Both the position numbers and the translations under genes were made by a program. Shown one piece after another: positions 1,900-59,499 of a DNA stretch of 64,000 nt. The notes beneath the pieces are model-generated. The model did no database searches, was not told the DNA's origin, and worked only from the letters and a program-made list of their open reading frames with translations. The number at the start of each line of letters is the position of its first letter. Positions within the stretch are counted from its first letter, which is position 1. The stretch is from Rhina ancylostomus (Eukaryota), in NCBI GenBank assembly GCA_030265395.1, contig JARFYF010000002.1:70853744-70917743 (forward strand), read 5' to 3'.

Positions 1900-2109
1900 G
1901 AGACACATGTGCTGGAATCTGGAGCAAAAAACAAATTGCTGGAGGAACTCAGTGGATTGAGCAGCGTCTGTGGGGTGGTGGTGGGGAAGGAATAGCCGAC
2001 ATTTCTGGTCCTAATGCAGGGTCTCAACCTGAAACATTGACAATTCCTTTCCTCCCACAGATGCAGCTTGACCTGCTGAGTTGTTCCTCCAGTTTGTTTC
2101 TTGCACAAG
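1900..2109. mobile_element. Palindromic Penelope-derived mini-element with a degenerate hammerhead core
   Basis: Left arm caaattgctggaggaactcag..gcagcgtctgtggg is inverted in the right arm cccacagatgcagc..ctgagttgttcctccagtttg. The centre has CTAATGC-agggtctcaacct-GAAA (2011-2034). Confidence 0.75.
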
Positions 2110-5100
2110 ATTTAGTTTGATATTCCCAGGATTGGAGAAGTTTAGGATCTTTGGAACAGAAGAGACTCTGGTGATTTAGTTGAGATGTATAAAATTATCA
2201 GAAAAACAAACAGGTTGGATTGAAAAGATCTATTTCTATTAACAAAGAGGATGTGGATGGTAACTCGGGAGTGTACATTCACATTATCAGGCAGCACAAT
2301 TAGAGGGGTGTTGAGGAAATGTATTTTTCCCCCAAGAGTGGTGAGTGTCTGGAGCTTTTGCCTAATTGGAGTGTTGAGGCTGAAATCCCTACCATTTTTA
2401 ACAAGTACCAGGGTGAATATTTGGAGCAAAGTGAACTACTTTGAACTCAGGCTGTAGACTGAGAGCTGATAAGTGGGATTGTGCTGAATAATGCTTCCTC
2501 AGCCAGCAGGGGCCAATGATGTGGTGTGCTATAAATTTCTATGATTCCATGGATTTGAAAGGCTGAAATGGCCTATTGTTGTTTCTGTAGTGTTTCTCTT
2601 TCATGTTAAAAGAATTGAATACAGCGGTCACATTTTGTAGCATTTTCTGTTGTGAAAACAAGGCCCTCTTTTTCTCTCTCGGGGATGTAAGTGGTCTTGT
2701 GGCACTATTCAAAGGAGAAAAGGAGGACATCCCAGCTGGTGATTACCCCTCAACCAACATCATCATCGTATTGCAGTTTTGTTGGCAAATGCTAATGGAG
2801 GCAAACTGGTTGCTGTCCCTATTCGCTATTTCGGGGTCTTCAGAAGTTGGTGTGCTACATTAATGTTCTTTGGGGTGACTTGCACTTGTGAAAGTTACCA
2901 TGTAAATACTAATCTAAGTTCANNNNNNNNNNNNNNNNNNNNNNNNNNNNNNNNNNNNNNNNNNNNNNNNNNNNNNNNNNNNNNNNNNNNNNNNNNNNNN
3001 NNNNNNNNNNNNNNNNNNNNNNACACTAACACCAAAAAAGGAGTGCTGGATGTTAGTGTGAATTGGTGTGCATACTTAATTTTCTTTCCCTCTTGCACTA
3101 AAATGCAGTTGCACGTTGAATCAATGGTAGCTGGTTCAACAGTAATTTAGTAGTTGTGGAATTATTTTCTTCATAAATAATGCATGAGAGGAAGATTCCA
3201 TGCCACGAAACTAAAATGTGTTGCTTGTCAAACATTAACATATTTGTGCTTTGGTACTGTTTTGAATTTCTGTAAAGTATCTACTTAGGAAATAATGAAT
3301 ATGATGGCATGTGCATGGGGGAAGTGTGAGGGGGTTGATCACGGCCATTGATTATAATACAAACCACTTACCATAGCTACCTTCACATAAGTATGCTGTT
3401 GGAAATTGCAGGGTTTAACAATGATCCTTGCAGATGCAAATGAAGTCAACATAATCCTGAGAATTTTCCCATTGGCGTGATAGCAGCTCACCTGAACATT
3501 TAACTAAAAGGCTACTTTAATATCAGAGGAAGTATGGAACAACGTGTACTGAACTTTATGTGGAAATTAGTGTTTTGTGATCAACTCTATGATCAACTTT
3601 TATCAGAATTTTTTTAGAATTGTGATATTCTCTTCTTTGTGCATTAAGATAAACTGTTGTATCGTATCCTTATTGAATTTTGTGACCCTAATAATGTTAA
3701 TAAAAACTGTTAATGCCAAAAATGCATGTAACTGAATGAGTTGTGCATGTATAAAGTTAAAATTGGAACAAGAAAAATTCCTGAGGTGTCATTGAAAGGT
3801 GCAGGATTTTGTTGCAGTCATAGATTTAAAGCTATACTTTTCAAACTCCTGAAGTGCATCAGCTGATGGAATTACAATCCTACTGTGTCACATTGCAAAC
3901 ACATCCTCCGAAAACTTCGAGCCACATTTTCCTCCCCTCATCTTCCTACAATTTGACTTAAAATAATATAACTACCTGAAGTAAAATTCCTGCGTAAATT
4001 TGTAATGTCAAAATCAAATAGTCAAACTTTCTCTTGTCCCTATACAGAATTAATTGCAGGGAGAAAATAAAATGCTAAATGTGACCTATTAATATGCTCA
4101 CATTCTGGAAAGAAACCAGCTGATTTGAAAGTTGAAGCAGGATTGATATTTCAGTTTTACATTAATCTATTTGAGAGTCACTATAGCTGAATGTTACTTG
4201 AACAGCTTTGTATATTCAGTCTTTTTATAAGTAAATACGTTATTGCTATCTGATCCTAAAACTTGCACAAATCATTATCTGAGANNNNNNNNNNNNNNNN
4301 NNNNNNNNNNNNNNNNNNNNNNNNNNNTGTGTTTGCTGTATTTCCCGCGTAGATATGAATACAAATAAACAAAAAAAAGCAAACGTGAAAGTGTTTCTAT
4401 TCTTTGGTTTTGATCATGTGCAGAGGCATTTTGTCACAAGCATCTTAAAGCCTACTGTATTTTCCCTTTGACATCTGATTTTTAGAACTTTTCTCCTATT
4501 TTTATTTTGATGAGGAACCTTTTTACCTCATTAATGTTTTTCTTTTGTTGCTGCATCCCAATTAAGTTTTACTATTTTCTCACTTCCTGAGTTCTCACTA
4601 TGCTGGATCCCATCATAAATGGCATGCCCTGCAATAATGTATTAACAGATTTTCCAACCCAGTTTAATATATGATCTTAAAATCTCAAAGTCTGTTCTAA
4701 TAGCTTTCATCAAAATTACAAATGATGTGGTAATCCATGACTGTATTGGTTACAGGGCTACAGTGAAATAGAGAATTCACTTTGGGTTAGATGCATTAGA
4801 AGTGTGTGAGTAATGTTGGATGGAACCAAGATATAGAAATCAAATAATGTCATTTAACTTGGAAAGACAATACTTGATGTATAGGTACATTAATGAAGAT
4901 CTAAAACTAAGGTTCCTGGATAATTTGTTAGTATAAGACTATGCACTAAATATCATTGCTGAAATATAGTTATCAAAAATGTAGGAATGATGATGGGAAA
5001 GGGAATCCATGCATGAAAAGTTGGAGGAGATTGCTGTGGTAGAAAGGAATAGGGCAGGATTTTAAGTATGAAGCTTCTGATATGGGATCTAACTGTCAAT

Positions 5101-6369
5101 TCTAATTATTTAGAACTGCATCTTAAGTAATAAAAAGAATAATAAGAAAGTGGTGGGATCACTCAGTGGGTCATGCAGCATCTTTGGAAGGAGTAAGAAT
5201 TGACATTTTGGGACAGTGATCTTTCAAAATAAAGATATTACTGAGACAGTTTATAAACAAAAATAGAACAAAGAAAATATGGAGGCAGGAAAAAAACACA
5301 AGGGTGACATTTGTGAAAGGTTAGTGGGCAGGAGTAATCAAGTGACTAAAGGAATTACCATGCACAGCAGAAAGTGGAAACTGACAAAAGATGGGGACAG
5401 CAAAGATATAAATGATGACATCAAATACTGCTTCAAATGAGATTTGGAGAAAGTATCAATGGTGGAATTCAATTGTTCTGTTGCAGAATTGCATTTAAAT
5501 TAATTTGTCTTTTGAAATAACGCTAAATTTCAATCTCTGCTCCATCAACTGCAATCTTGTATGTATGTTTTGTATTTTATTGTAAGTTTTTATTGCATGT
5601 TGATCAAATTCTCTCAGGAGACTTAGTTTTGTGCTGTCATCTATGGAATGCAGCAGGTCAACGACATTCTCATTCCACACTTAAGCTGGTGTACACTCCA
5701 GAGTACTGTACCATGTTTCACTCTCCCTGACTCAGAGTGGTATGATTTTAAATGCGAGAAGTACCTGATATCGTTAGGGATTGTATTTGCCTGTAAAGGC
5801 AAGAGTTGTCACTGCAAAATGTTTGGTTTAATCTTTACCTTCTTGCACGTTTCATGACCTCTTAAAAAGCGAGAAAAATTATACTTTTTGTATTGAAATA
5901 GCAAAACTAAAACAAGAAATTGAAGGGATACACTGAGTGTTTATACTTGTTTACGCTTATGTTTACACTTTTTTAATGTTCAGAATTTTGGTATGATGCA
6001 TAACTAAGGAAGACTGCTGGGAATGTAAGAATTCAATCAAAACTGCATAGCTTCTGAATTCAGGGACTGTAAAATTAAGCCAGATCTAGACAGGAACTGC
6101 GGCCTTTTTGCTCTTGGGAGGGCTTTTGTGGTTGAACAATTAATTATTTCCTATGTGGGGGGGGTCTGAATTATACTCTGCTTGAATAAAGAGGGGTGGA
6201 ATTATCCACCATTTGATGCATTACAAAATCTAATGTGTAGTTTATTGGCCAAACTTGTCTATTCTCTAGAATGGTCAGTTTATATATTGTTTAGATCTAG
6301 TAAATAGCCAAAAATTGCAGGCTGTGAGTGCAGCTAATGTTTGAGTCCCCACCCTCAAGAAAGTTTAAT

Positions 6370-6800: not shown

Positions 6801-7724
6801 TGTTTCACTGCTGACCACAAAGACCCATCCCATGTAATCTGGGCACGTTTTCCCTAAAAAAAACAATGAATGGCAAGGGGTAAATAGGATTGCTGTGTTT
6901 ATGATTTGCAAAGTAATATAGGCTATGATTTAGCTATTACATCTCACTGGAACAGCACATCTGAAGGATGCAACCTGAGTTTGAAGCAAAGTAAATTCAA
7001 AACTAATTGACACAATGGTCTGAATTTTAATCTGCAGGATTGTGCAGGTTTGGGAGTAGGTGGAGGGTTGGGGGGGGTGGGAATACGAGGGGTGGTGGGG
7101 GTGTGGTAATGGTGATGGTTTACCCAGCATAATTGTCAGTGTGTCAGATAGCCAAGTCCACCCCTCAACATCTCAGTGGAGCAGGTTTGATCACAGGCAG
7201 GCATCCTCTGTGGGAAAGGCATTTTGTCAATGACCATTTATTATCACTCAGAGCAATATCTCATCCAACTTTTCAGTTTGTTTTCTGGTTTCCTGAATAG
7301 TGCAGTGAATAGGAGGCATGAAGCATGAAATAGGGTTTATAGCCAGAGACAGTTTCTGTGCTATATCTCAACACATGTGCCTCAGAAGGCTCAGGCTGTT
7401 AATTCATATGATGCTAGACAACCTGTTGAATGCAGATGGACAAATATTACCAGTGGCCGTCAAAGTCATCATTGACTCAACATTCTGGTCTCCAGATTTT
7501 TCCAAGGTTCTGTTGGTGATGTATCCAGAATCTCTCAATTTATTGTCTCCTCATGCATGAAACAGAGTTGTTTACTAGGGTCAGCAATTGAATCAGCTTT
7601 GTTTCTGGTGGCAGTCAAAAAATGTAGCAACTCCACTGTGTACAGTCAACTGAAATCCAGACTCTCCCAGAAGCAGAGTTACCATGTGCGGCTGGTGTCC
7701 AACACCAAAATCAAATGTTTATCG

Positions 7725-8250
7725 AGACTCAAGAAAGACTGCAGATGCTGGATATCTGGAGCAACATTCAAACTGCTGGAGGAACTCAGCGGGTCAGGCA
7801 GCATCTGTGGAGAGAAATAGATAGTCACCGTTTTGGGTCGAGAACCTTCATCAGGACTGGAAAGAAAGTGGGGAGAAGCCAGAATAAAAGTGTAGGGGGA
7901 GGGAGTGGATCAAGAGCTGGNNNNNNNNNNGGGCGCGCGTGGGCATGATGCAAGAAGCGGGAAGGTGATAGGTGGAAGTGACAAAGTGATGAAGAAGACG
8001 GAATCTGATTAGAGAGGGCAGTGAACCATGGAAGAAAGGGAAGGGAGTGAGGAGGGCAACTGGTGGGAGGGGTGTTGGGGATGGGCAGATTGAGAGGGTG
8101 AGGAGGAAAAGAGAAAGGTTGATGTAGGATGAACAGTAGGATAAGCGAAAACAAAGTGGGGACAGAGGGGAGTGGTTACGGGAAGTTGGAGAAATCGACA
8201 TTCATGCCATCAGGTTGGAGGCTCCCAAGGCAGAATATGAGATGCTGTTC
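7725..8250 (-). mobile_element. Penelope-like element 3' end (end of GIY-YIG region, 3'UTR and hammerhead motif)
   Basis: The minus strand encodes QHLIFCLGSLQPDGMNVDFSNF. The motif cagtc-CTGATGA-aggttctcgaccc-AAAA lies at 7823-7859, followed by the shared acagatgctgcctgacccgctgagttcctccagca tail. Confidence 0.8.
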
Positions 8251-11200
8251 CTTGTTAAAGGAACTGTCAGGTGCTGTCAAATGTTTATGGAGTTGTGTAC
8301 AAAATTACTGGGCAGTTGTATTGATGTATGAAGGGATGATAGAAAGAGGGCAAGGCATCGCATTTGAATGTAATGGTTCTTCGATTATAATATTATCTTT
8401 GTAAGTCTTTATTTAGCTCATTAATGTTCTTGACCCAATATCTATTGTTGGGTGCTGGGTAGAGAGAAGCTTCCTATCTTGTTTAGCCTTAGAGTCGTAT
8501 AGAACAGAAATAGGCCTTTCAGTCTACCAAGTCCATGCCAACCATCAAGCACCCATCTATTACTGATTGTTATTTACCAGCACTTGGCCTTCTATGCCTT
8601 GGGTGTTCAAGTTCTCATCTGGATACCACCCACTCCATTTCTATCCACTATGCTTTCTGCTTAACTGCTTTCTGACCCACTCCATCTTGGACACACCATC
8701 CCCAGCCTCTCAGTACATTCCCTTTCTCTGCCCTCCACTTCGCCTCCCCCCCCCCAAACTCTCCCTGTATGGCTGTGTCCTTTGAACCTGCTCCACCCGC
8801 CCCTCCTCAACCCCACGTGATCCTTTCTCTGAATACCTTCTCGGTGGTTTTCTTTGATTTACTTCCCTGTAATCTCTGCAATACAGAGTGATTAAGGAGG
8901 AAGGGCCCATTCTATTGCACATAACATCTTGCGGATTGTGTGTGCTGGAGTATTGTTGGTTCATCAGTAGATCAGCTGAAGTATGACCCATAATTTGGAT
9001 GTCTTTGATCTATATAAATGCAAGCTGTGGATTATATTTGTGTAACTAAGGCTTGGGCTTATTTTTTTGCAGGAAGGGTGTTGAGACAATGTACAGAATA
9101 CAATGGAAATTCATCATAGGTCTGCTTGATATAAAGAATCACAAACACATGGTTCTTTTTTCTTTAGCAGAATTTTTCCACTTAATTAAGTAGGAATCGA
9201 TATAAGATGACCCAAAAAAAGGTTAGTTAGGTAAGGGAAAGAGACAAGGGGTGAAGGGACTACAATGACTTGTGGAGGATAAATACCAGTATGTACTGGA
9301 TGGGCCACTTGTTATAAGTTCATTATAACCATTATATTTCTACTTGTCTGAAAGCAGATTAAAGTTTCACACTGTTCATAATCCTGAACTATGACGTTGG
9401 TGTTTGTTAGTTGCCCCAAAGAATAAACCTTATTGGTGGATGACTTTTTGTCATCTGATTACTTGAGCTTCTGATAGGTTTAATGGCCGCACCGTATATA
9501 ATTATTTGAAATACAGTTAGACTCTTTATGTGGTAAGCTGACAATATAAGTTAAATTCTTCATTCATCAAAGCTCTCCTCATTATCCCAAAGGTTCGACT
9601 ATCCCTGTGCAGAGTAATGAAGCTGCAAATCAAATTCCCAGCAAGGGCAATTAATTCTCTTGATGATTCTTTTTTTTCTTAAAATATCAGGATAATTATT
9701 TGGTTGGCTGCCCAGTGAATACAGATGAATGATCAGATTCTGGAATGTTGATGGATTACTATGATTCCTGTGCTGCAGGCACTAATTGGCCAGCTAATTA
9801 AGAAATGTCACCTGTGGTTAACCGATGAAAGTATTAATAAATGATAGCTTGATATTTTGGCTTTTTTTTTCCTGGATTTACCTTGAAGAAATTTTGTGAT
9901 ATATTTTTGTATGGTTTAACCAGTGGGGCTGAATCAAATTTCTTGGACTCCACCCTACTTGCTTAACTTCCTTCAGGAAGATGGTCAGCAAGAGAAAGGG
10001 GCTTGATGGGCTGAATAGCCCCTTCTTCCCTGCAACATTTTCTTATATTGGTATTTCTTGTGCAGCCGTGGAGGAACAGTTCCTTTGAATGATTAAACAA
10101 TGCATCAAAGCAATGGATCAGCAAGTGGGCTTCGTGGTGTGCACCTTTGCCAGTTATTGGAAGGACGTTATTCAATAGTGGAATAAGAGGTAATGCTTCT
10201 CTTAAGTCTTTTTTTTAAATGTTGACTGCAAGCAGCAATTCTCTTCATTCAATGTAATCCACTTTAAATTCTAACGGTCTTTGCAGTGCGACAATATGGT
10301 GACTTGCTAAGTTGAAATCCTTTGCAGTCTTGGCCTGCTTTGTAGTTTGCCCAGTATAAGTGTGTTTGATCAGGAAGTGTATGTAGAACTGACAAGGTTC
10401 TAACAATGAAACTTTCAAAGTATTCAAGATCCCTCAGATTTTCAATTTGTTTCATATGTATATTTTATTTTCTATAGAAGACCAAATTGCATAAAAGTGT
10501 AAAGCTGATGACTTCACTTCTACTTTGGCTTTATAATTCTGAAAATAGCTTTTGGTTATTGTGGAGAAGAAAGATGAAACTTTGATATTGAAATCATATC
10601 TGCGGTTTTTGGGACTCACAAAAGGGTAGGTAATTTTAGACCTGATCCCCATATTAAGCAAGGTTGGATTGTGCAGAACAGCTGTCTGAAAATTAACATG
10701 CTGTTGAACAGCTGGCAAAAAAAAGTATTTCTAAACTGAGGATGCTGGTGGGGTGTGAGATGTATGTTGTTACTGAACTGGGAATGTAATGGCTTAATCT
10801 CAACATTTGGTGACCTCTAATTCCAGGCTAAGGAACAGAAGGATATAAAAGGAAAGAATGTTGCCTGGAAATTGTCAGTAGTACTTAGCACATATAGCAA
10901 CATCAGCACATTGTATACTACCTCTGAAATTCATTGAATGAAGTTAATGGAATGGAATTTGGAAACAGAGTACAGTATTCTTACTTTACTATACACAGTG
11001 TTTACCACTACCAACCAGGAACGTATTTTGAGGCACATATACTTAGTTAATTTTGTGTTGGAAAGTGTTTTATAGCCAAAAGATTACTTTTGACGTTAGA
11101 ACAAAAGTTGCTGACGCTGATAATCCAGAACAAAAACAGAAATGCTTAGATCATTCAACAGTTCTGGCAGCATCAGTGACAAACAGTCACTGTTGAGTGG

Positions 11201-15520: not shown

Positions 15521-15839
15521 GAAGTCCAGTTGCAGGACCTAGAGGGGGTCTCCCTACTGTCTGCTACACCAGAGTCGTCATCAGGGATGTCTGCGTGTGA
15601 GGCAGCATCTGTGGGCGGACAGAGTAAATGTTTTCAATCAATGGCCTTTTTGTCAGAGCATGTGAAACATTACTACTGCTGTGTTCATCACAGAAATACA
15701 ACTGTATATCTATCCTATCAGACCATAATTTTCAAAATATCTATTAGATCACTCCCACCTTTTTATTTCCCAGAGAGGACAGCCTCACTTTGTATTCTTT
15801 CCCGGAAGCTTGAGAGTCTCTCAGTTCTGATAGATAAAC

Positions 15840-16135: not shown

Positions 16136-18159
16136 AATATATACTTCAAGAGAGTTCAAGATTTCTTTATTTGTCATTGTACTGTTGCAGAACAACACAA
16201 CGAAATTACGATGGCACTCCCTTGCCTAATAAAAACCAGAACTGTAAATTGATAAGAACAATTATAACTATAAAATAAAACAAACATACTTACACAAATA
16301 TAAGGTATACAAAAAATGAGGCAGTGTGCAAATGGACCATGATAATAATAGTAATGATAATCAGCAGCATATCAATATCAATATAGCAGCATAAATCATT
16401 AAATAACATCATGGTACTTGAGAAGCTTATATGTACCTTCTCCAATGCCCATATTTTATTCTGCAAGATCACTGACCAGAAACATTAACTCTGGTTCTTT
16501 CTCCAAAATGCTGCCTAGTCCCCAGCATTTTCTGCTTTTATCATGTTCTCCATGCTCTCGCCCTCTGTCTTGCTTCTCACTCTGAAGGCTGTTTATTTAC
16601 ATGTGGGTTTCAGCCACCCACACTGTCAGTCATCAGTCTGGGCTGGGCAAAAATTGAATGGTGTTGGACAATACGAAGTGGACCGCTAAGTTGGTCTCAA
16701 CTAACTTGGGAGCAAAGTGCTTTGGGTGGTCAGATGGTTCTGCTTCCCTGAAGGCCATTGGATTCACCTGATTAGTCAACAAACCTGTATTGCTAAATGA
16801 AGTATTTTTGTATTGCTAAATGGAGTACACGTGACCCTGTGCTGTGAGGTGGTTGAGTTCTTGGAAAATCACAATACAGACTGTTTTCAATTACGTGAAG
16901 CTACATCATCTGTGCATGCATCAAGAAATGCAAGTTTTAAAAAAAAGTTTATTTATTTACTTTTTTTCCTATGTAAATTTTGTGTAGTTACTTTTATTCT
17001 TGGGTACAGGCAGGGAGTGCCTTTTCTGGGAGAGAGGTAGCTGGCCCAGAAAAATAGGCACACCATCTGAAATAAAAATTCTGCATTGAGCTTTTTTTAA
17101 ATCATGAATGATCTCAAAACTCTTCAGAAGGGCATCCAGTTATTTTAAACAATAACTTGTTCACAGCTCTTCGAGATAACACTAAAAGTATATTGTTAAC
17201 GACACATATATCTGTTTATGTAAAATTAGTTCATGCCTTCTGCTCAGTATGGTGTTGCAAATTTTTGTTTTAAGCCATTTATTTTCTTGGTAAGGAAGAT
17301 GAAAATCACTGAAGCAAACACTGATTTTTGTTTTTAACTTGAATGACTACTGCGGGTGCTGAATTTCACAGCTAAGAATCCTGATCGTTCCTTTATGGAA
17401 ATCCGTTAAATCCCCTGTTGCTGTTGCCTCTGTAAGATTTAAATATTTTTGCAGCTCAGATGGCTCAGCTGAACGCTGACAAAGGCTTGGATTTGTGCTT
17501 TAGCAATCTCTGCAGACCTGTGATAATCAGAGTGCCTGCTATCGCAGTTAATTATGTAGTCTATATCCAAAAAAAGCAGTGATTCTTTGACTCTTCAGGT
17601 GCTATGTGGATGCTGTCCTTCCCTCCTCCTCTCCAGCAGATTGTTACATCCATCCTGTTCCCTTCTTAACAATAACATAGAAAGGAGACTAGAGCAATGA
17701 GGTACAGAGATCAGGTATCAATTAGTTTACTTAGTATAACACAACTGCATTTATAAAATATGCACAGGAAGCAGAGCCTACTCATTATACTGATCCAGCA
17801 CAGATTGAGAGCTACATGTTTGTGAAAACCTGTTCCCGAGCTTGACTGTCAATGTCGCACAGAGCACAGAGATTGCGTCTTGCCTCACCTTTTCTGCTGT
17901 TGCAGCTGAATCTGCAGCAGAACCAGAAGGAAAGAATCTGACTTCCCTTCAAAGTTAGTTGGAGTCTTCTCACTCGAGATACAGCCCACATGCTGGAGGC
18001 CAGGGTGGAGCAGAAGTGTCTGAGTGTTCCAGAACTTGTATTGAAAACACTGAATGATGGCTGTCAGCTTTCAGTTTCCTGAATTACAGCACAGGTTTCT
18101 GATTGGGACAGGAATGACCATCATTCTAATTACAATATTGAGCACATGCTTGATAGATG

Positions 18160-20690: not shown

Positions 20691-22589
20691 TTTATATGCT
20701 ATTGAGTTGAACTTATGTGTGTTTGTTACTAAACTCAACCTGTGAATATTTTTGGACCACACTTGTAACTAACGGTTTTCTATAGTCAAATATCCAAGGT
20801 AATTTTAAAAATTAGAGTAACCTGAGGAGTTTTCTGATGTATCTTGCATTGCAGGTTTGAATATAATTTTTCACTTTGCTTTTATTTTTCACGGGTTGCA
20901 CATTAATTATTGTAGAAATGAGATTTAGTGAAATTCCGCAAGCGTTTCCTGAGTAATACATCTTAATGCAAAGTTTATTCATTTTATCTATAAATCACAA
21001 ACGGGAGCTATGCTATGAAATTGATATCAAGTCATCTGTAACTTGCCGTCCACCCTGTATCCCTTCTCTTCACTGGCGTGAATGCCGAACCAATAATCGT
21101 GACACTAAAGCTATACTTGGGCTGTTAAACTCTGGGCGGTTCCCAGTTATTGGCTGTTGGGTTGCTTGGTATAACTCTTTGGATGAGAACCTCCAGCTCA
21201 TGTTCTCACAAGGAGTACATGAGTGGAAGAGTGTGCACAGAGAAAAGTAGTAGGAAGAAATTATCAAAGAGTTCTTGGTTCAAAATGCTAGAAATCTGAA
21301 ATAAAACAGAATATGCTTGAAGTATTCAGCAAGAAAGGCAGCATCTGTGGAGAAAGAAACTGAATTAACATTTCGGGTACAAGAAAAAATATTGGGTTAT
21401 CTGAACTTTGAGACAACAAAGCTCTTTTCGTGGATGGATTGTACGATCCATTTCTTACATCTATTCACTGCTTGCTATAAAATAACATTTTACTTGCTGG
21501 TTATATTAGGGTAGTTTTTTTTGTCCCAGATCACTGATTGCCTGTTGCTGGACAATACTTTTTTTCCAGTGTGGCCCTGGGAGCAATGTGGCATAGAGCA
21601 GCATGGTAGCTGGGCCAGTACTGATATCCTGCTCACAGAATAGCTTTGACAGCCAGTGAGGCACTTGGAACTGGTTTTTAAAAAAAAGTATTACAAAATA
21701 TTTTGCATTTAAAGCTAAATAAATTGCATAGAAAAGGTATTTAAATAAATGTGATTTAATTTGAAGAAAAAGCTCTATTTGCCTTTCTCAGTGATATCTT
21801 CCTGTCATTTGAATGTAGCCACTGTGACTAATCTGGCACAGGGTGAGCACATCTGCTTCCCAGCTTGAGAGGTTCACATTGCTGCATTGGGCAGGTCAGA
21901 AGATGTTGTCACCAGTTTAGGACGGTGCCAGCAATGGAAATCAGAAATTCCATGGATAAATGTGAGTACTTTCCAGTGTTATCGCTGGTCTGGTAATGGA
22001 AGATCTAGCTCTTTTTATTTGGTTAATCTATTACATATATTTTATGTGTTAGTATTTAGATTAAATATTTTTAATCATGTAGTCAGCAATGTTTGGGTTG
22101 TTAAAAATCTTGTCATAATGTAAAATTATAAAAATAGTTGCAATAATGCTAGGGACCATGTATATATCCATGGAGTAGCTCAGCAACAACTTATTTGCTC
22201 TATTTTGGAGTACTCCAAATTAATTTTGCTGTGAATTTTCATTCTATCACCTCAAACCGTGGTTTATTAGCCATCTGTTTCTGTATTCAAAGTCTATCCA
22301 CTGTGGCCCCCAGTTGTATTCTTGTTAGCCTGTCAGTCACTGGTGGTGTGTCTCTTAAAAAGCACTGCTGCCTGGCAAATGTGCTGATAAAAACAGTAAA
22401 GGTCAGTGAGTGTGACAATTGGCCTGACCCATTACATCCCAGTCTGCCTCGCCCTGGATCTGCTGAGAACGGTGGTGTGCAGCCTGAAGAAGTATGCTCA
22501 AACCTCCTTCACCCCCACTTTGAGGAAGTAAATGCCTTTCTCAAAGGAAAGGAGGAAATTTGCTGTGGGTAAATCTTTGAAGCTGATGT

Positions 22590-30366: not shown

Positions 30367-30613
30367 TAAATGAAAATTAAAGCCGCAGATGCTGGACATT
30401 AGAAATAAAAATAGAAAATGCTGGAAAAACTCAGCAGGTCAGGAAGCATCTGTGGAAAGAGAAACAGTCAACGTTTCAGTTCTGCGGCCCCTCGTCAGAA
30501 CTGAGAAAGAGCAAGATGCAAGTTAATTTTCAGTAGGGGAGAAGGTACTGAAAACTAACTTGTGCCTTACTCTTTCCCAGTTCTGATGAAGGTTGCAGAC
30601 TTGATACGTTGGC
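30367..30613. mobile_element. Penelope-derived inverted mini-element with hammerhead motifs on both strands and a 15-bp TSD
   Basis: Inverted arms 30465-30535 and 30546-30615 with a 10-nt spacer. Flanking direct repeats tgagataagtttcag (30352-30366) and tgaaataaatttcag (30614-30628) match at 13 of 15 positions. Confidence 0.8.
30465..30503 (-). ncRNA. Minimal type I hammerhead ribozyme motif (best-preserved core; stem II is weak)
   Basis: The minus strand reads CAGUU-CUGACGA-ggggccgcagaacu-GAAA-CG-UU-GACUG. Stem I is CAGUU/GACUG, both conserved boxes are intact, and stem III is the palindromic ACGU. Confidence 0.65.
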
Positions 30614-31544
30614 TGAAATAAATTTCAGGTTTTGTTTAAATATTGCTGATAAATGGCCTCCTGTCTTTGGTCACTTTACCTTCTGATGTACAGGATATCA
30701 GCATGTATTTCAAATATCTGGATGGCATGATGTGTCAGGAGTTTTTAGTCAGTTGTGGCTCAGCTGGTGGCATTTTCACCTGAGGTGGGGGACTGTGGGA
30801 TCAAGGCCATCTCCTGCTTTTAATCCAAACTGACACCTTGCCAAAGGAGAGGAAGAAGAGAGCACTGAACTGATTTAATGTTAAACTAAGATCTCATTGC
30901 CATTCCTAGGTAGATGCAGTCTGTATTTGCCCCTCACCCAATATCACTAGAACAGAATGTCTGCTCATATTTTCATCACTATATATAGAATCTTGCTTCA
31001 TGCAAATTCTCTGCATGTTCACAGCAAGAGTAGATTTGGGGAAAAAAGTACTCAGTGCTAAAGCACGTTGGATGTGAACAGCACAATATAAACCAAAGTC
31101 TTTCACACCATCTTTTAAAACCCAGCTGAGTGTGTTGGGACCAACGTCTCTGCACGTTGGAAGTTAGGGTCAGTTTTAATTCATCTTCTATTGGCCATTT
31201 ATTCCCATAGCACAAGCCTGCTGATCTTCTTGTTGCTAAGTGGCAGTCTCAGTTGAAAGCTTGTGTGATAGCTCGTGTCAACATGAAACCATGGCACACT
31301 GCTGCTCCACTGGTTGAGCCAGATAAACTTTGTTGAGGAAGCTTTATCTGAAGCTGGTAAGCCCTGGCATTGTTTTGGATATGTATAGATGGGGAGAGGT
31401 AGAGATGGATGGGAACTGGGCATGAAGTGTACTTAAGTCAACCTTTTTAATGTTTCTTTAGGTGCAGTGAGAATTCACCCACAAGGTGGAGAAGAATATA
31501 TACGTCAGAACAGTTAAAAAAATTTCTCTCTGGTTTGCCAACAG

Positions 31545-39244: not shown

Positions 39245-39387
39245 TATGCACATTGATATGTGCTGTATCATATTTGCACATGCCACATGGTAAAACAAGT
39301 TAAGAAACAATTTCATATGCACATTGATATGTGCTGTATCATATTTGCACATGCCACATGGTAAAACAAGTTAGGAAACAATTTCAT
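39245..39387. repeat. 71-bp tandem duplication with 1 mismatch
   Basis: The unit tatgcacattgatatgtgctg...gtta[a/g]gaaacaatttca starts at 39245 and again at 39316. Confidence 0.95.
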
Positions 39388-39409
39388 TTGCATTTCACAT
39401 AATTGACAG

Positions 39410-41810: not shown

Positions 41811-43717
41811 TAACTTATTTTGCCACATCTTCCATAATCCATTGAAAATTGGTTCCCAATTAAAAGTATTCTGAATGGTTGTATTCACAACCTCCAGTTT
41901 GAATTTGTGTGTGATGTAACCATGTTCAATTTTTTTTAAGAAAAAACAAAATATGGCNNNNNNNNNNNNNNNNNNNNNNNNNNNNNNNNNNNNNNNNNNN
42001 NNNNNNNNNNNNNNNNNNNNNNNNNNNNNNNNNNNNNNNNNNNNNNNNNNNNNNNNNCAATTTTTTTTAAGAAAAAACAAAATATGGCCACAGGGTTGGC
42101 TAGCAGTACACAACATGCCCAAGCTTTTAGTTTTAACTCATTGTCTAGACTGCACAGCATCTCTTCATTAAAGTTAACAGCACCGGCATTAAACCTTGGT
42201 GCATCTGTGCTGTGAGTTTCACATAAAATCATAAAGAATAGCAGCAGGTGTTGGCATCCTGACCTCAAGCTTGTTCACCACACACTGAGATCATGGCTGA
42301 CCTGTGCCTCAAGTTCACTTTGACATCATGTCCGCACACCCTTTTCAAAATTTTATTGATCTTAACCTTGGATGTACTCAACACTTTGTAATTATATATG
42401 TAGGTGTGTGTCACAAAATGTTGCCAAATTATTTGACAGTTCCCAAGGAAAAGGCAACACACTGACTATTAGCTGTGAAGGTAAAAAAAAACAAACGTTG
42501 CATTAAAGATGCTTTGGGTAAAAATTCTCCACTGTTGTACACACCAGTAACATTGAACTCCACTTCTGAAATTTGGTTCTATTGGGTGGAACCAGAATTC
42601 ACAAGTGCCGATCATAAGAATAATTTTAGCAGATAATAGATTTAGAGCTCACAATAGAAGAGATGTTTCTAAAAGTATTTTTATGTTCAGTATTTCCCTT
42701 TGGTTCCTTGTGAAGTAAAATATCTGAAAATCTGAACATTTGCAAACAGAATTACAATCCATGCATAAATACCTGATTTTGCATGGATGCAAAGTAAATT
42801 GGTAATATAATGTGCATCAAAGATCCCTGTAGAGTACAAATATATTGGACACAGTTCAAAGTTCACTGCAGCATGTTGGGATTTGAACCGTACTCTTGGT
42901 GATACTGATTACATCTGCATCATTGTTTGTTGAAAGGTTTAAACTAGGATTTTATTGGCCAAGTGTATGTTTGCTTTACTGCTTATTCATTGATTGGAAG
43001 GACCCTAGCTGGGAGTTGCACAAATAGTTGCTATGTTGCATGCATACATTGGTTTTGTTCAGATGGGAAAAAGACTTGGGCATTGTGCATTTTAACTTGG
43101 GACTGAAAGCGTCTATGCTGCTATTTTAAATCTCCAGGCAGATTCTTTATAAATAGTTTGAGTTCTAGACAGCGAGGTCATTGTACAAAGAATCTTTTTA
43201 TAAAGCTTTTAATTGTGTCTATTGATGTTATCCACTGAAGAAAAGTAATAAATTCACACCCAGCTTGCAGATGTCAATAGTGGTATCATTAGGACAGTGT
43301 AATAAGGACATTTTTGTAATTTATGGAATGTATTTCTTATGACGATAACACTTCAAGTGTTAATTCTGAAACATGTTCTGTCCAGAATGTTTGATGAAAG
43401 GTCACCAATCTGAAACATTAATTACAGGGGATATACAGCACATAAACATTTGTCCCTGCAAGCACTTGCTGGTGATTATGCTGCTCATGAATTTCCTCCC
43501 ATCTTTTCTAAACCTATCAGATAACTCTGCTTCTCACTCCACAGATGCTGCCTGACCTGCTCAGTATTTCCAGCATTTTCTGTTTTTTATTTCTTGTCAT
43601 TGGGAAATATGCCAAATCTTGCAGCTGTGCTGTCTGGTCACTGTACGGTTCTTTGCCTTTCTTTGCCACCACCTACGGTTGAAATAAAGTAGTGATCTTT
43701 GTTACTCAGCTATGATA

Positions 43718-44062
43718 AATATGAACATTGAATTTTCCATTTTCAGGTAATCCACTCCCCCTGCATTCCTTTCTCACTNNNNNNNNNNNNNNNNNNNNNN
43801 NNNNNNNNNNNNNNNNNNNNNNNNNNNNNNNNNNNNNNNNNNNNNNNNNNNNNNNNNNNNNNNNNNNNNNNNNNNNNNNNNNNNNNNNNNNNNNNNNNNN
43901 NNNNNNNNTGGGCTTCTGCTCCCTTGGCTTACCCTTCCTCTCCCTTCCCCCACCCGGCTCCATCTGCCCATCATCCCTCCCATATCTGGTTCCACCTATC
44001 ACTTACCAACCTCCATCTCACCCTCGATCTCACCTCTTTATACTGGCTACCTACCCTCTAAT
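43718..44062 (+). mobile_element. Penelope-like 3' fragment (left arm of a long inverted repeat)
   Basis: Begins atgaacattgaattttcc (MNIEFS, the end of the PLE ORF). Near-identical to the reverse complement of 45030-45366. Confidence 0.8.
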
Positions 44063-44989: not shown

Positions 44990-45366
44990 GAGTACAATGT
45001 TTTGGAACAAGATCCTGTATCAAGACTGAAATTGTAGAGGGGAGGTAGCCAGTATAAAGAGGTGAGATCGAGGGTGAGATGGAGGTTGGTAGGTGATAGG
45101 TGGAGCCAAATACGGGAGGGATGATGGGTAGATGGAACGGGGTGGGGGAAGGGAGAGGAAGGGTAAGCCAAGGGAGCAGAAACCCAGGTGATAGGCATGT
45201 GGGTGATGGGCAGGTGGGGAAGGATAATGAGTCTTGGTAACATGGGGGGTGGGAGGTGATGGAAAAGGTGAGCAAATGGGGAGAGATCCTGAGTGGATTG
45301 GTGGGAGTGAGAAAGGAATGCAGGGGGAGTGGATTACCCGAAACTGGAAAATTCAATGTTCATATT
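44990..45366 (-). mobile_element. Penelope-like 3' fragment (right arm of the inverted repeat) with a degenerate hammerhead at 44993-45030
   Basis: Reverse complement of the 43718-44062 copy, starting at the same point. Confidence 0.8.
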
Positions 45367-46890: not shown

Positions 46891-46933
46891 GTGCTCCTGG
46901 AGAATCATGAGCTGCTCCTGGGATTTTCCCATG

Positions 46934-48312: not shown

Positions 48313-48835
48313 CTTACCATGGGCTGTAGGCTATCCAAGTGGAATATGAGGTGGTATTCATCTGGTTTGCATTTGGCCTCACTGTGGCAGTGGAGAAGGC
48401 CGAGGACAAACAAGTTGGTGTGGGAATGGGAAGGAGAGTTAAAATGACGTGTAACCAGAAGATCAAGATGACTGTTGCAGACAGAGCACAGGTGCTCTTC
48501 AAAATGGTTGACTGGTCTATACTTGGTCTTGCCAACATAGAAGAGGCCATATCGCGAGCTCTGAATGCAATAGTCCAGGTTGGAGGAGGTGCACGTGAAT
48601 CTCTACCTCACCTGGAAGGCCAGCTTTAGGTCCTTGCACGTCCTACGGTTGCAGGGGAAACTGCCAGGGGACAAGAAAGGGTGGGTGGGAAGAAATGAAC
48701 AGACCAGGGAGTCATGGAGGGATTGGTCCCTGTGGAAAGCAGAAAGATGGGTAAGAGAGGAAGATATGACTGCTGGGGTCCTGTTGGAGCTGACAGAAAT
48801 GGCAAAGGATGATATTCTGGATGTGGAGGCCAGTA
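48313..48835 (-). mobile_element. Penelope-like element, GIY-YIG endonuclease region (degraded)
   Basis: Minus translations AFHRDQSLHDSLV..PGSFPCNRRTCK..FQVR and VLGLLHCHSEAKCKPDEYHLIFHLDSLQP. Confidence 0.8.
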
Positions 48836-48849
48836 TTTTTTTGCATAAA

Positions 48850-49729: not shown

Positions 49730-51738
49730 GTGAGTGTGATAAATGCTTGCCACTTACAAAGTTATTTCAAAGATTTGATTTCGAAATGGAGACCACTTAT
49801 AGGGCAGTGATACTGATGAACTTCCTTTGCTTTAGCTGCCAGTGCAGTTCTCAGGAATCACTGGAATACACAAAAGGTAGCAAATTAATTACAAGTTACA
49901 CTGCTTTCCTTTCTCAATAAATCAGAATATGGGTAAAGTGGAGAAGAAAAGGTAAAATTTGATTGATATATTCATCACTGCCTTCCCCTCTCTGGGCGCA
50001 GCAATACAGTTCTCTCCCCTCCCCCCTTAAATGAATAGATGACCTCCCAGCTCGCCATAAGAAGAGTTGAACTGCCTTCTGGAATTTTGTATATTTGGTT
50101 CTATGACTTGGCATTTAGCGTCCCACTGTTTTACTTGCTCACTGGGTAGGTGGCTGGGATTGATGATGTTGGAATTTCTTAAGCAGCTTATCTGGCTGTT
50201 CCTTCAGCCTTGGANNNNNNNNNNAATGGTGGACCAAGTGCCCAGCAGCCGAGGGGTCAGTGTCTGCTAGATCGCATCCAAAGCTGGAGACTCGGTTGCA
50301 TGTAAAGTCTTGGTGATGTTGCTCTATTGTTGAAATGCATGAGGTGCTCTCCCTTGCCCTGGGGGTTTATATAATGTGAAGCCATCTGTATTGGCTTAGA
50401 AATAAAGTGGGTGAAACTCAAATGAGGAGCAGCCACACAACCCGAGCAAACCACTGGGCGACAGTGTTGGTGTGGTAAAGTCAGCCATCCATCTCAGCAG
50501 CACCTACTGGGAACAGCGACACAGAAATTAAATGATAAATCTTGGTCGCATTCAAGAGTGTGAAACGACTCAAAAGATGCATCTGGCACTCTTGCATTAA
50601 AACAACAGCAAAGATTCACCACTGCATCATATATACTTCCGATAATGTTCATAACTCAGAGATTTTGTCACTAATGGTGTCAGTGCAGAAAGCTGGACAC
50701 CTTCAGCCACTGGTATCCATGATGGATACCTTGCATCTCCTACAGTGGATGCATCACCAACTACAAGCTTGGTTGTCAAGCACTAGCTCGACCAGCAACT
50801 GAAATGGTCAGGTTTGAAGGGCTCCATTTCTTCCGACTGGTTGTCCAGGCAGATTCCTTAGCCAATCTGTTGTCCTGTGCACTAGCATCACCTAGCCAAT
50901 TTCAGGATGGCAAACGTGGTTGAGGTCACAGTAATCAAATACATTCAAGGTCGGGTCATGGTGTCCTGTGAGATGCAAGCAACTAAAGAAGAAGTGGAGG
51001 AATATATTCTAATGATGGGTCTTCGACCTGGAACTGTAATTCTGTTTCTCTCTCCTGACCTGCTGAGACTTCCCAACATTTTTTGCTTTTATTTCAGATT
51101 GCCAGCATCTGCAGTTTTTTTTAAGAATATATAATTTAAATCTAATACGGTATATTTGCATTCTGTACAAAACGTATTTTTCTGCTGAAATATATCACTT
51201 TGATAAAATTGGTAGTAATTCTAGCCAGTTTTAACTGTGCAAGGAATGTGTTTGACAGCCCAACATCCTGTTTACTGGTGCAGTTTCAAGAGGGTATGGG
51301 CTTGACATCCCTTTGTTCCTGTGCTAAGATATCTGCTTAATTTAGAAATTAAACAAGTTGCTACAAAATTGAGTTAAATTAAAAAAAGGTCAGTTGTGAC
51401 TGCTAAATGCAAAGCTCTGTGGGTGTGAAGATTGCCAGGTTTATAAGGTGAAAATTTCCATTGATCAGTAGTTACAGCACTTTGTAAACAACACATCTGT
51501 TCCTTATTTCTCTGCCTATTATGTCTGTCTGCTGCATATGATTATTAGATTCTGTCTGTGTTCCTTTTTGTCATTGTTACTCTTAATACAATAGGGTTAC
51601 AAAAGGACAATAAAGAAATCTTTGGTCCATTTACATGAGCAATTGACTCATATTTAATATTGTTGGATGAGAGCTTAGACTTCTTTGTTATTGCATAGTA
51701 GTATAGTGATCACATTTTATCTTCTTTCTCTCTTTTAG

Positions 51739-51870
51739 GTAGTTGGAATATTTGCGGGTTTTGGCCTTTTGCTGTTAGTAGCATCACCTTTCCTCCTGCT
51801 TGCCACACCGTTTGTCCTCTGCTGCAAGTGTAAATGTAACAAAGGAGATGATGATCCTTTACCCACATAA
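51739..51870 (+). CDS. RNF144A: RNF144A coding exon 7 (VVGIFAGFGLLLLVASPFLLLATPFVLCCKCKCNKGDDDPLPT*; transmembrane segment with GxxxG, Cys-rich tail)
   Basis: Strong pyrimidine tract plus ttttag acceptor, TAA at 51868-51870. The joined CDS is 885 nt with no internal stop. Confidence 0.97.
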   Translation, partial: VVGIFAGFGLLLLVASPFLLLATPFVLCCKCKCNKGDDDPLPT

Positions 51871-54800
51871 GCATGATGCCCCGATAAAGAAAACAGGAGG
51901 ATGGAATTTTATGAACATTCTTTCCAATATAACTATCATCTTAATTCGTCTGATTTTTGTCCCATGATATTTCCCAGAGTCAACGTTTGTTTCCCAGCTT
52001 GCACAAGTCCAGAGTCTCTGAGAGTGCAGTGAATTTTAAAAAGAAGTGTGGATAAGAAGTAATTGGGTTGTCGAGGAGACAGTTTATTCCAAGAGAATGC
52101 ACAGGAACTTGGTGTACTGCACAAACCTCTGGAATATGGGAAGCAAACTTAGAAAAGTACTTGCTTAAATGGTTCTCAAAGAAGCGATATACTTGATGGT
52201 GTACAGCTGTACATTTAAATATAAGATTTATAGGTTATATGAAGAAGGAAAATAAGTAATTTTGGAATAAACAGAAAATGGCTGAGATGCTTCAGGATAG
52301 AGAGAGGGAGAAAGCCTTCTCTTACAGTTGCAATGAATAGTGATAGAATTTGCAATGAATAGAGAACCTATCAGAATTAGAGATTTTTTGATGTAAAAAA
52401 AAAGCCCCACACCCTTTTCTATAAAGAGACAGAAGTCAATTTTACTGTATAAAATCTTTTCAAAAAGCATTTTTGACTATTTTAATTGGGGATCTAAAGG
52501 TTTCATCATTTCTAAGTCATGATTTTTTTTCATGCCATTTATCTAGACCTATCTTCAAAATAATATCTCCATGTGTTTATTTTCTGAATACGTAAAGGTN
52601 NNNNNNNNNNNNNNTTCTTAATAGATATCTGCAATAATGTTTCTGTAACTTTGACTGCAGATGGGAAAATGATTACTGACTAGGGGACTGTGAACATGCA
52701 AACTCATTCAAAACTTATCACATTCTCATTGTCAAAATGATGTTTATTGAAATTCATTCCTCAAAAGTTGCTGTGTTTTACGCTGAGCACAAATGATCTG
52801 AATTTTCACTTATTTTGACAAACAAAACATACTTATTGACTCTGAAAGGATGAAAGGAAAATGACTTGCCCTTTAAAGACCATAAATTGCTCTTTGGCTT
52901 TTATGAAATCCATTTCGTGATCTATTTCAAACACATCAGGATCACAGTCTATTAATTTTAAACCATTGTAAATCCTGTTCTTGAAATTACTGCTTGGTCT
53001 GTATAGTTGAAAGATGAATGCCTAGTGATCAGAAACATGAATTAAGGAGGTGGGTAACAAAGTAGATAAGAAATTCAGTGGATGGGTTTGAATGATCCCG
53101 GACTCTGAAACAAAAGTGGATAACAAGAAGAGAGTCACCAAAAAAAAACACACTGAGGAGTGAAATTGAGTCCTGCTAGTGAGCTCTGTATTCTAGCCTG
53201 TTTGGATGTTTATCTCTAGCTGTGTATTATTGTGTTTTTAATTTCTAACATAATTGCAAGAGCTCTTATTCTAACTTCACAAAATTATTTCTACATTAAT
53301 GCACAATTGTTAATGGCTAAAGTAACCAGGAACAGAAAACAAGCTTTTTTAGCAAGTTTATAGATTTTCAGAGTCTGAAACTGAACACAGTTAATTTTAG
53401 TGGAACTGCAAATTAAACCAAAGGTGCACAATTTCAAGGAGCATAAACTAGGAAGCAGCTTGAACCAGGTTGAACTGTAGTTAGAAAGCAACATGAATAT
53501 TGGAATATCTTGGCTACTTTGGAGAGAGTCAGGGTGGGAATTAGGGCTGTGGGGATAGGAGAATCTCTAGTTGGGTTGTGGAGACAAAAGACTGCAAATG
53601 CTGGGATCCGGAACAACATACGGAAAGCTGAAGGAACTCAGTGGGTCAGGCAGCATCTGTGGAGGGAAATGGACAGTCTGTCTCTCACCCCCCCCCGCCC
53701 TCCATTCTGTCTTTCAGTCCAGATTAAGGGCCTTGACCCAAAATGTTGACTGTCCATTTCCCGCCACAGAGGCTGCCTAACCCACTGTTCCTCCAGCTTT
53801 TTGTGTGTTGCTCTAGTTGGGTTGTCCTTGCACTTCTGTTGTTATTTTTAACAATGGCATCATGAAATGTTTCATGGTTTTAACTTCTATTTCTTCATGT
53901 CAAAACAATTACCACATATATAATTACTAAATAAGAAGCTAATGCACCATTTACTTGCTGTTGACAATTTACAGGTAGCTGTAGGATAGTGGGATAACAT
54001 TGCCGTTGCATTTACTGGGATATTTCTGTGGGATTTGCAGCTCCATGTGTCACTTTTTCATTTGCTGAGTAATAATATTGCATTCTCAAGGATTGAGTGG
54101 AGGCTTGGTTTCACTTTTTTCATCTTTACTGTTTAATACAGATGTTTTTCCAAACAGATTTATTAAACAGCAAAAGACTGAAAAATTAAAATATCACACG
54201 GTAACTTTTGTTATGGTTATTAAACTTACCTTCTGCTGAGACAAGCATGTAACTAAGTAAAGGTCAGTCCTACAATTTAAGATGATAAATTCTTTTGTGG
54301 TGTCTCTTCCTATTTTCACTGTTTACAGAAACTTCACACCAACCTTTTGATTGACCCAGGTTAAGATATACTTTCCATTAAATGACCAGGATCAAAGCGA
54401 TCTAATAGCTATGTATAAACTTTGTAAATGGAAAGAAAACTACCAAATAAGCATAATTCATACAAACCCCATGAAAGTTATGTACTTGAATTAAGTTACT
54501 TCATTCCTTCCTTAGAGTAAAACTAAAGGCATACAATCTGGGAGTGAAGCATTTTTTCCTTTTATCCTTTACAAGACACAATTAAAGATGTTCATGCCAT
54601 ACTAAATTTTAGACTAAGCACTAATCTTAAGGTATTGGAGTCAACTATTGAAATTACTATCTCGTTTATCTCCAGGGAGCAAAATGATTCTTTCTGCAAC
54701 ATTATTACACATGAATTGAGGTCAGTGCTGCATAATAAAAACACTATTTGTGAGATACATGACCTCTTAATTAGATAGCAATTCAAAAGAAAATTGCTAA

Positions 54801-56900: not shown

Positions 56901-56913
56901 TTCCTGTGTTGTC
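56876..56913 (+). terminator. Candidate distal polyadenylation signal: AATAAA at 56876-56881 with downstream GU-rich ctgtgttgtc
   Basis: Canonical hexamer, upstream TGTA motifs, and a GU-rich element ~25 nt downstream. Other AATAAA hexamers occur at 52266, 54734 and 56278. Confidence 0.55.
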
Positions 56914-57949: not shown

Positions 57950-58650
57950 TCTAGCCCAGCATTAAGTTCATAGTTGTGCAGGTCATGGTTCTTTTAAGTA
58001 CACACCCAAGTGCTGTTTAAATGCGGTGAGGGTTTTTGCCACTACTGCCCTCTGAGGCACTGATTTCCAGAGCTCTGTCATCCTCTGGGTGAAGAGTTTT
58101 GTTTCCTCGATCTCCCGTCTCATCCTTCTACCACTTGTGTTTAATCCATGCCCCCTTGCTTTTAACCACATTGTTTAAGGGCATTATATTCTGTCCCTTT
58201 TCTGTCCAGGCCCTTCATAATTTTATAAATCTTAATTAGCTTTCTGCTCTGCTTTCTTTGTTTCCAAGAAATCGTAGCTTATTCAAATTTTCCTCATATT
58301 TAACATTATCCAGCCCCCTCATCCTTGTAAATCTCCTCTGCATCCTCACCAGTGCCACAGATTTTGTCTTACAAAGTGCTGACCAGAATTGTATGCCATG
58401 CTCAAGCTGTGTTTGTAAAACAGATTTAACATACACCCCACCAGACCCCTGCCCCCACCCCAAGAATGTGGAAAGTATGCAAAGTTCTAAAGCAATGAGC
58501 TGTAAGGCAGACCAGGGTTTATACCCACTTTCTGGAAACCCTCTGTTTCTCTGTTTAGAATCCATCTATTTATTGTGTATTGTCTTGCCTTGTTTGCCTC
58601 CCTAAATATACTATCTCACATTTGTCCAGACTGAAATTCATTTGTCACCC
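57950..58650 (-). mobile_element. CR1 3' fragment
   Basis: Minus translations ARGHGLNTSGRRMRREI..LFTQRMTELWKSVP and QLEHGIQFWSA...LVRMQRRFTRMRGL. Confidence 0.85.
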
Positions 58651-59499
58651 CACCCCCAGTTAAAGGCTTCAAACGGAGTACGGCAGCACACGCATATGTC
58701 TGAGATCTTGGGGCTTTAGTACCGGTATTCCAAGGCAATGCTGTTTGAGGCACCTGCTGCCGCCAATACATAGGCTGTTCAATAGTTTGAAAGCTGTTTG
58801 AACTAGGAGACAAATGAGAATAAGAATCCATGGAAGTCAAAAATTACTTTATGTCACAAACTGTGGGGCTGAAACATCTTTCCCTGTGTTAACTCATTTA
58901 AATGACTGGGCAGATTTCCCANNNNNNNNNNAAGAGCACAGAATGACCATTTAAAAAGGACACAGTTCACCAGATTTCCAATACTATCATGCCATTGTGT
59001 AATTCAATCAATCAGAGATGTTAGGATAAAGGTTTTTATGCAGAGAGCAGTTACAATCTGGAATTCTTGACATGCATCAGGTTTAAAACCTTTCATAATA
59101 CAGACTAAAGTGATGGTTAAAAGTATTATGCTTGGATGTTTACAGGAATTCAACTGTAATAGGAGATTTAAAACCTGAAGTTTTCCCGAGCAGCATGGAC
59201 AGTGCCCACAGTGTTTTTGTAATAACCATGTTTATGCCAACTCTTCATACCAGTCCTTGAGTTGCAGTGTTGTACCTACCTACATGAGGATGTAGTGTCC
59301 TGCACCTACAACCCATCAGTCTCTGTGCAGGATGAGTACCCACCCCCTTTACAATGGATAAAAAGCTCAGATTGCGGGAAGAACTCAGTGGGTCAAGCAG
59401 TATCTGTGCCTAATCTACTGAGTTCCTCTAGCATTCTGTGTAATGTTCCTGATTCCAGCATCTGCAGTCTCTTGGGGATTAGTCTGGAGTTATGAAATT

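Follow-up and report, generated by a model that had tools for sequence, protein, structure and literature searches.

The 64,000-nt stretch of Rhina ancylostomus DNA analyzed here (assembly GCA_030265395.1, contig JARFYF010000002.1, positions 70,853,744 to 70,917,743; hereafter, the window) contains a family of short segments that are, with a probability of about 0.9, scattered ends, truncated and mutated, of a highly abundant repeat located after a Penelope-like endonuclease gene, likely the pseudo-long terminal repeat (pseudo-LTR) of a shark/ray Penelope-like element (PLE). The family pattern is that of a minimal type I hammerhead ribozyme (min-HHR), which is predicted to cleave only with a second copy or with the help of a protein, and the nine copies in the window are likely inactive. 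The family itself, its intact core and stems at the family level, the adjoining end of the endonuclease gene and the defects of the individual copies are directly visible in the sequences described below.

A dispersed repeat family

The repeat family is real. A profile seeded with four copies from the window detected 17 segments (12.5 to 129.6 bits, seeds included), compared with a maximum of 9.5 bits in the controls, which comprised 20 shuffled windows and one reversed window; four further segments scored 3.2 to 8.2 bits. The profile missed a motif at 43391, which was added from the sequence and counted. Altogether, the family occupies 13 loci in 62,105 non-N bases, that is, one per 4.8 kb, in keeping with the density of about one per 6 kb estimated in an initial annotation of this stretch. 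A min-HHR is recognizable in nine copies, all within a few bases of the places and on the strands listed by that annotation, and the partial motifs that it placed near 5200 (minus strand) and 16480 (plus strand) are present as well. The copies and their adjoining parts are the following (positions in the window).

1909–2005, minus: inverted arm, 5′-truncated to about the motif's GAAA
2006–2115, plus: min-HHR (G5 and A9 changed) and tail, right arm of the inverted pair
5145–5224, minus: partial copy and tail; stem II remnant, G12 gone
7735–7821, minus: conserved segment 3′ of the motif; family depth drops at about 7722–7737
7822–7859, minus: best-preserved min-HHR, G12 (7834) and U16.1 changed; C3 is 7854, and the cut is predicted between 7827 and 7826
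7860–8174, minus: pyrimidine-rich pseudo-LTR or 3′ untranslated region (UTR), from the stop of the open reading frame (ORF) to the hammerhead
8175–8253, minus: Penelope-like GIY-YIG endonuclease, final residues plus stop codon (protein-level match)
11113–11194, minus: diverged truncated copy whose start is a few bases 5′ of the predicted cut; absent from the initial annotation
15591–15661, minus: strongly decayed motif (G8 and U16.1 changed), short tail
16463–16549, plus: partial copy and tail
21284–21378, minus: truncated copy, beginning within the 3′ arm of stem II; absent from the initial annotation
30386–30516, minus: sole copy with all core bases (motif 30503–30465), antisense to RNF144A
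30565–30615, plus: min-HHR (A14 changed) ending right after stem I, back-to-back with the preceding copy
43386–43424, plus: decayed motif, C3 changed, palindrome gone
43520–43586, plus: tail from about the predicted cut, about 100 nt 3′ of the 43391 motif
43718–44060, plus: ORF end and pseudo-LTR without a hammerhead, near-identical inverted twin of 45366–45035
44991–45366, minus: ORF end, pseudo-LTR and decayed motif (C3, G8, A9 and G12 changed), ending at about the predicted cut
48321–48830, minus: broken Penelope-like linker and GIY-YIG endonuclease remnant, no pseudo-LTR attached
51004–51111, plus: decayed motif (G5, A13 and U16.1 changed) and tail, in the last RNF144A coding intron
53595–53680, minus: inverted arm, beginning at the first base past the predicted cut
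53702–53830, plus: min-HHR (53715–53752; U4, G8 and G12 changed) and tail, right arm of the inverted pair
59352–59464, strand not applicable: tail-only fragments as an inverted pair, hammerhead-free

The initial annotation described the motif as usually followed by a common tail. This holds for six of the nine copies, in which the tail lies directly 3′ of the motif; the tail is missing at 30578 and 44993 and displaced by about 100 nt at 43391. At this last locus (43386–43586, plus strand), about 100 nt of intervening DNA near the predicted cut split the motif from the tail, and the two parts possibly represent one interrupted copy.

Core bases are changed in eight of the nine copies (one to four changes each), and the ninth, at 30503–30465, has two of its five stem II pairs broken and is predicted to fold into another hairpin. 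The palindrome is intact in three of the nine. G12 is kept in six motifs and lost in three, as G12-to-A changes, and also in the partial copy near 5200. Judged from these defects, the nine copies are likely inactive: the initial annotation considered most copies dead, and the defects are indeed there, in all nine rather than merely in most.

Four of the 13 loci are opposite-strand pairs (1909–2115, 30386–30615, 53595–53830 and 59352–59464), with a different junction in each, and such inverted pairs are unable to supply a dimer partner. The closest motifs on the same strand are at least 2.7 kb apart (range 2.7–28.6 kb), and none of the five tandem arrays of the window that were examined contains the motif. 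Dimer formation in cis is impossible at these loci, the window being devoid of a tandem partner.

The hammerhead pattern at the family level

The column majority of the nine copies has all core bases, and its stems I and II fold. Of 90 stem cells, 63 are paired, versus 34 ± 5 (maximum 54) at random places, with the anchors for both the alignment and the count placed by the analyst, a point taken up again below. Pair 10.1–11.1 is paired in all nine copies (three G-C, four G-U and two A-U). Single copies fold no better than shuffled sequences, and their structure does not rise above chance; the hammerhead reading rests on the family pattern, and this pattern matches the published min-HHR position by position, as the initial annotation had proposed.

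To describe the family beyond the window, contigs of four of the 19 listed runs were aligned to 7690–7920 at 80% likeness (organism A, 45,029 contigs; B, 43,582; E, 57,665; D, 1,420). One run, X1, is possibly the window's own source, in which case the independent organisms number three. Among the tally rows listed, none of the four runs has a variant of at least 5% at C3–A9, the extra base, A13–A15.1 or the 5′ arm of stem I, and the CUGANGA core together with its one unpaired base (7854–7847) is free of such variants. The private change of the reference copy at 7844 is reversed in 95–97% of the depth, restoring a stem II pair, and that at 7822 in 83–92%, restoring the outer stem I pair; 7828 is U16.1 in 85–90%. 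Position 7838 varies between A and G (30–36% G), with the stem II pair kept as a wobble, and C11.1 is changed in only 5–13% of the depth. G12 is found in 39–50% of the depth although the reference has a decayed A, and C17 in 29–38% despite a decayed letter in the reference, position 17 being C or U. In the palindrome (15.2–16.2), CG is the majority, with CpG decay of 12–28% per side; at the two CpGs that are intact in the reference, both directions of decay occur at similar rates, again 12–28%. Taken over the family, the core is intact, and stems I and II are paired.

Many tail positions are as free of variants as the core, and the tally is, for that reason, taken to indicate an intact master rather than selection on the core. 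It fits an intact master followed by neutral CpG decay. The erosion of G12 at a CpG is supported, and the claim of G12 loss through CpG decay is borne out both by the three motifs and the partial copy of the window and by the contigs. The consensus lines of loose ends at 7810–7812 reveal sister subfamilies that have C17 and differ in the outer stem I bases of the 3′ arm.

In the runs, depth over the tail exceeds that over the motif about 12-fold, a ratio that also reflects subfamilies sharing the tail, and contig counts and summed depth are not copy numbers. From the density in the window and this ratio, the genomic abundance of the family is probably of the order of 100,000. The very large family foreseen in the initial annotation is in any case supported by the contigs from four organisms.

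The adjoining Penelope-like endonuclease

The endonuclease end at 8253–8175 is matched at 70% identity over 23 amino acids (E 1e-8), and 86 of 150 relatives match 8253–8185, the final residues before the stop at 8175. The motif at 7859 lies about 315 nt downstream of this stop codon. The 45366–44991 copy has the identical order of ORF end, pseudo-LTR and motif. The previously suggested attachment of two copies to the end of a PLE ORF is thus confirmed at the protein level for 7725–8250 and by DNA alignment for 44990–45366.

The decayed endonuclease was missed by a Pfam scan, and a word-index search found no relative; a full HMMER search succeeded, with 444 relatives at E up to 0.001 for the frame 48599–48315, a frame for which GIY-YIG look-alikes were seen as well. 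All five long PLE-like relatives contain RVT_1 as well as a GIY-YIG domain at the C terminus, with two of the RVT_1 and four of the GIY-YIG scores below the Pfam cut-off. Among 20 relatives looked up, 18 were traced, and 16 bear shark, skate or ray names. The closest relatives have the cysteine linker (CX2-5CxxC) of Neptune/Nematis, which is partially present in the 48830–48321 remnant, itself without a hammerhead.

This remnant is cut off by a 3′ piece of another repeat that recurs at 1–486 and that resembles the end of a long interspersed nuclear element. Pieces of PLE endonucleases were also seen within the predicted host proteins P0004, P0006, P0012, P0035 and P0062, some of them under unrelated names (mucin-2, neuromedin-U receptor), pointing to exonization or to gene-model errors.

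Proposed formation of the copies and the predicted cut

The copies end about 95–105 nt past the predicted cut. In view of this spacing, the conserved 3′ segment of about 100 nt probably opens the next tandem unit and is unlikely to be the optional 30–40 bp PLE 'tail'. The observations can be accommodated by the following scheme. An active tandem PLE, carrying a working dimer- or protein-assisted hammerhead, would be transcribed across its pseudo-LTR; two motifs would form the stem III that each of them lacks by pairing at the 4-nt palindrome ACGU, and would cleave after position 17; and reverse transcription would begin about 100 nt downstream of the cut. Early stops or fold-back of the cDNA would then generate short solo ends and inverted pairs, and the inserted DNA would decay neutrally, most rapidly at four CpGs, G12 being part of one of them.

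A weak lead is a possible excess of fragment ends close to the predicted cut. Five of 16 internal alignment ends (six of 17 with the 43391 motif) fall within about 6 nt of it, for which the binomial p is 0.007–0.024, with the interval picked post hoc. Two of these ends may stem from one interrupted copy, and the inverted repeat of stem I invites template switches. Six opposite-strand joints listed in the contig tally are at differing places, only one of the six at the predicted cut. No accumulation of starts or ends is listed in that tally, a feature that contigs are unable to reveal. For two inverted pairs of the window, base pairing between the second arm and the 3′ strand of stem I is predicted.

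Another weak lead is a putative splice-acceptor-like site 3′ of the predicted cut. In the best-preserved copy (7822–7806, minus strand) and in the equivalent tails, a pyrimidine tract, CAG and ATG follow about 20 nt after the predicted cut, resembling a 3′ splice site. At least 9 pyrimidines in the 11 bases before this CAG were found in eight of nine tails, compared with 6% of the CAG sites in the window; the tails are related by descent, so that this feature amounts to one observation. A branch-point-like sequence overlaps the predicted cut in copies with U at position 17. An ORF start at the ATG that follows this putative acceptor was considered but gained no support: the reading frames differ among the copies, and the peptide is in none of the fetched proteins.

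Both leads would be joined if the ends of the genome's hundreds of thousands of fragments were a fossil record of ribozyme cutting in vivo and if the cut fell just before a 3′ splice site, coupling cleavage to the splicing of a PLE 5′ intron. A share of the templates would then be hammerhead-cut RNAs, whose insertions would start or stop at position 17. We regard this proposal as unlikely; if true, it would answer whether PLE hammerheads act during transposition.

Comparison with known hammerheads and retroelements

The min-HHRs of PLE pseudo-LTRs have been known since 2014. These motifs lack stem III, are inactive as monomers and cleave weakly as dimers (Cervera and De la Peña, 2014, PMC4209133). 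The window family shares with them the type I topology, the CUGANGA core plus an extra base, G10.1-C11.1, GAAA, the palindromic 15.2–16.2, the NUH triplet and the missing loop III, as well as the location 3′ of an endonuclease ORF and the predominance of solo copies with some opposite-strand pairs, which in the published cases are 100–700 bp apart (PMC4209133). It differs in its short stem II of 4–5 bp and in its abundance, probably of the order of 100,000, compared with about 4,000 copies in coelacanth and 9,000 in Xenopus; cartilaginous fish appear to be absent from the rows of Fig. S3 of that paper (PMC4209133). An open-access literature search that covered titles and the starts of abstracts, and did not extend to Repbase or Dfam, retrieved no chondrichthyan PLE hammerhead.

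For PAc, a Poseidon element of Anolis carolinensis, the start of reverse transcription lies within the RNA, 85–92 nt past the cut (Frangieh et al., 2024, PMC11167929). As in the window family, the hammerhead is in the pseudo-LTR, and genomic copies end at a similar place (85–92 nt past the cut in PAc, about 95–105 nt here). However, PAc belongs to Penelope/Poseidon, whereas relatives of the window family carry the Neptune/Nematis cysteine linker, and the PAc ORF starts inside the motif, whereas a frame from the motif AUG of the window family is only a candidate (PMC11167929). Typical features of PLEs are extensive 5′ truncation, truncated copies in inverted arrangement and introns in the 5′ UTR (PMC8557442).

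Animal non-LTR retrozymes resemble the window repeat in having a type I hammerhead, in being non-coding and dispersed as monomers, and in their proposed origin from PLE pseudo-LTRs; they are, however, defined by tandem hammerhead units (PMC7229834; bioRxiv 10.64898/2026.07.22.740005), of which there are none in the window, and classification as a retrozyme was rejected on this ground. Canonical type I hammerheads (Schistosoma, newt and amniote intronic) have the same catalytic core and open stem I. In contrast to them, the window motif lacks a stem III loop, a 6 bp stem I engaged in loop-loop contacts and any Rfam hammerhead match, and it was not assigned to the canonical class.

Pattern scans detected no occurrence in viral contigs or prokaryote genomes and none with the tail pattern in metagenomes. 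The core pattern alone was found in metagenomes at two near-identical loci, L001 and L002, from an unrelated animal, which lack the tail and any DNA match to the window. L001 (2085–2123, plus strand; the same in L002), on a contig from a metagenome, has a seemingly intact min-HHR whose stems differ; it lies in an intron of what is presumably a von Willebrand A repeat gene.

Evidence against the favoured explanation and alternatives

Several results weigh against the explanation favoured here. A strict min-HHR descriptor matched no site in the window, a relaxed one matched five compared with one to four in 12 shuffles, that is, at chance level, and an Rfam scan of the window found no hammerhead at E up to 10; this last silence is weak evidence because Rfam misses the intact-looking L001 motif too. 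The analyst-placed anchors mentioned above belong here, as do the bias of the contig tally toward reference letters and the tail positions that are as variant-free as the core. Stem covariation is suggestive only. In an alignment of 12 motifs, which included two partial copies and the unrelated L001, 11 cells were changed on both sides, a count as high in one of 500 shuffles; yet double changes occurred in only five of nine pairs (107 of 500 shuffles as high), affecting four of five stem I pairs and one of four stem II pairs, half of the stem II cells were out of register, and part of the signal came from the L001 row. In the window, remnants of the endonuclease were found but none of a reverse transcriptase. 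Finally, hammerhead cleavage in PAc depends on the PLE protein and is not needed for insertion in vitro, and none of the RNA reads ended at the cut (PMC11167929). The ViennaRNA two-strand minimum is a different pairing, but a kissing dimer is outside its scoring, so that this result is uninformative on the active dimer.

Some of these points would also suit a family that keeps the hammerhead shape without a working nuclease, the motif serving the PLE in protein binding, as a promoter or in splicing, or being carried along passively. Besides the protein-dependent and dispensable cleavage of the anole element, the weak activity of min-HHR dimers in vitro (PMC4209133), the spread of Naiad PLEs without a hammerhead (PMC8557442) and the pyrimidine tract with CAG 3′ of the cut in eight of nine tails are compatible with such a role. 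However, G8, G12 and the NUH triplet are all retained at the family level in four organisms, and the L001 locus of an unrelated animal has the identical core with different stems. We consider the absence of a working nuclease possible but unlikely.

Alternatively, the short copies could constitute a separate non-autonomous element, retrozyme-like or a fold-back short interspersed nuclear element, that arose from the PLE end and was mobilized on its own. The ORF end is lacking at 11 of the 13 loci, inverted pairs account for four of 13, the tail is far deeper than the motif in the runs, and a 2026 preprint derives animal retrozymes, which it detects in one chondrichthyan, from PLE pseudo-LTRs (bioRxiv 10.64898/2026.07.22.740005). 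Nevertheless, the motif is in no tandem array, the junctions of the four pairs and of the six listed joints all differ, as truncation predicts and a single master does not, and the depth ratio is partly explained by the tail-sharing subfamilies. A separate element is therefore improbable.

Domestication of one or more copies as functional ribozymes acting on RNF144A RNA is highly improbable: copies do reside in RNF144A introns, a pair is located near the gene's end and all core bases are present at 30503–30465, but this motif is antisense to the gene, with a broken stem II and a predicted misfold, every sense copy has core changes, same-strand motifs are at least 2.7 kb apart, and stem I is predicted to be captured by the other arm in two inverted pairs. 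A chance resemblance of a real repeat to a hammerhead, to which the descriptor, Rfam and single-copy folding results would conform, is largely refuted by the family tally and hardly credible, given the match at the family level, in the known min-HHR context, at eleven core positions, in the extra base and both stems and in the palindrome.

The host gene and neighboring sequences

26982–51867, plus: RNF144A, host gene with seven coding exons; best matches 87–88% to ray proteins

Several repeat copies are in the introns of this gene, and an inverted pair is located 1.7 kb past its stop codon. This pair (53595–53830) folds as a long hairpin (z −9.5) and, if inside the 3′ UTR, could be a substrate for double-stranded RNA editing.

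The two inverted pseudo-LTR copies at 43718–44060 (plus strand) and 45366–45035 (minus strand) are 94–97% identical and about 1 kb apart; each abuts an N gap, suggesting either a local duplication or an assembly artefact. Near-exact local duplications at 39245–39392 and 41927–42088 (a 71-nt tandem, and 31 nt flanking an N gap) are possibly assembly artefacts as well.

Significance

For annotation of this region, the copies in the window are to be treated as dead repeat ends, not as host ribozymes. What is new compared with the known min-HHRs is a cartilaginous-fish family that is common to at least four organisms and probably well above the published vertebrate counts in abundance, together with a tally of which core positions decay. 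The family thereby offers an extensive data set on the question of cutting by PLE hammerheads in the course of transposition (PMC8557442; PMC11167929).

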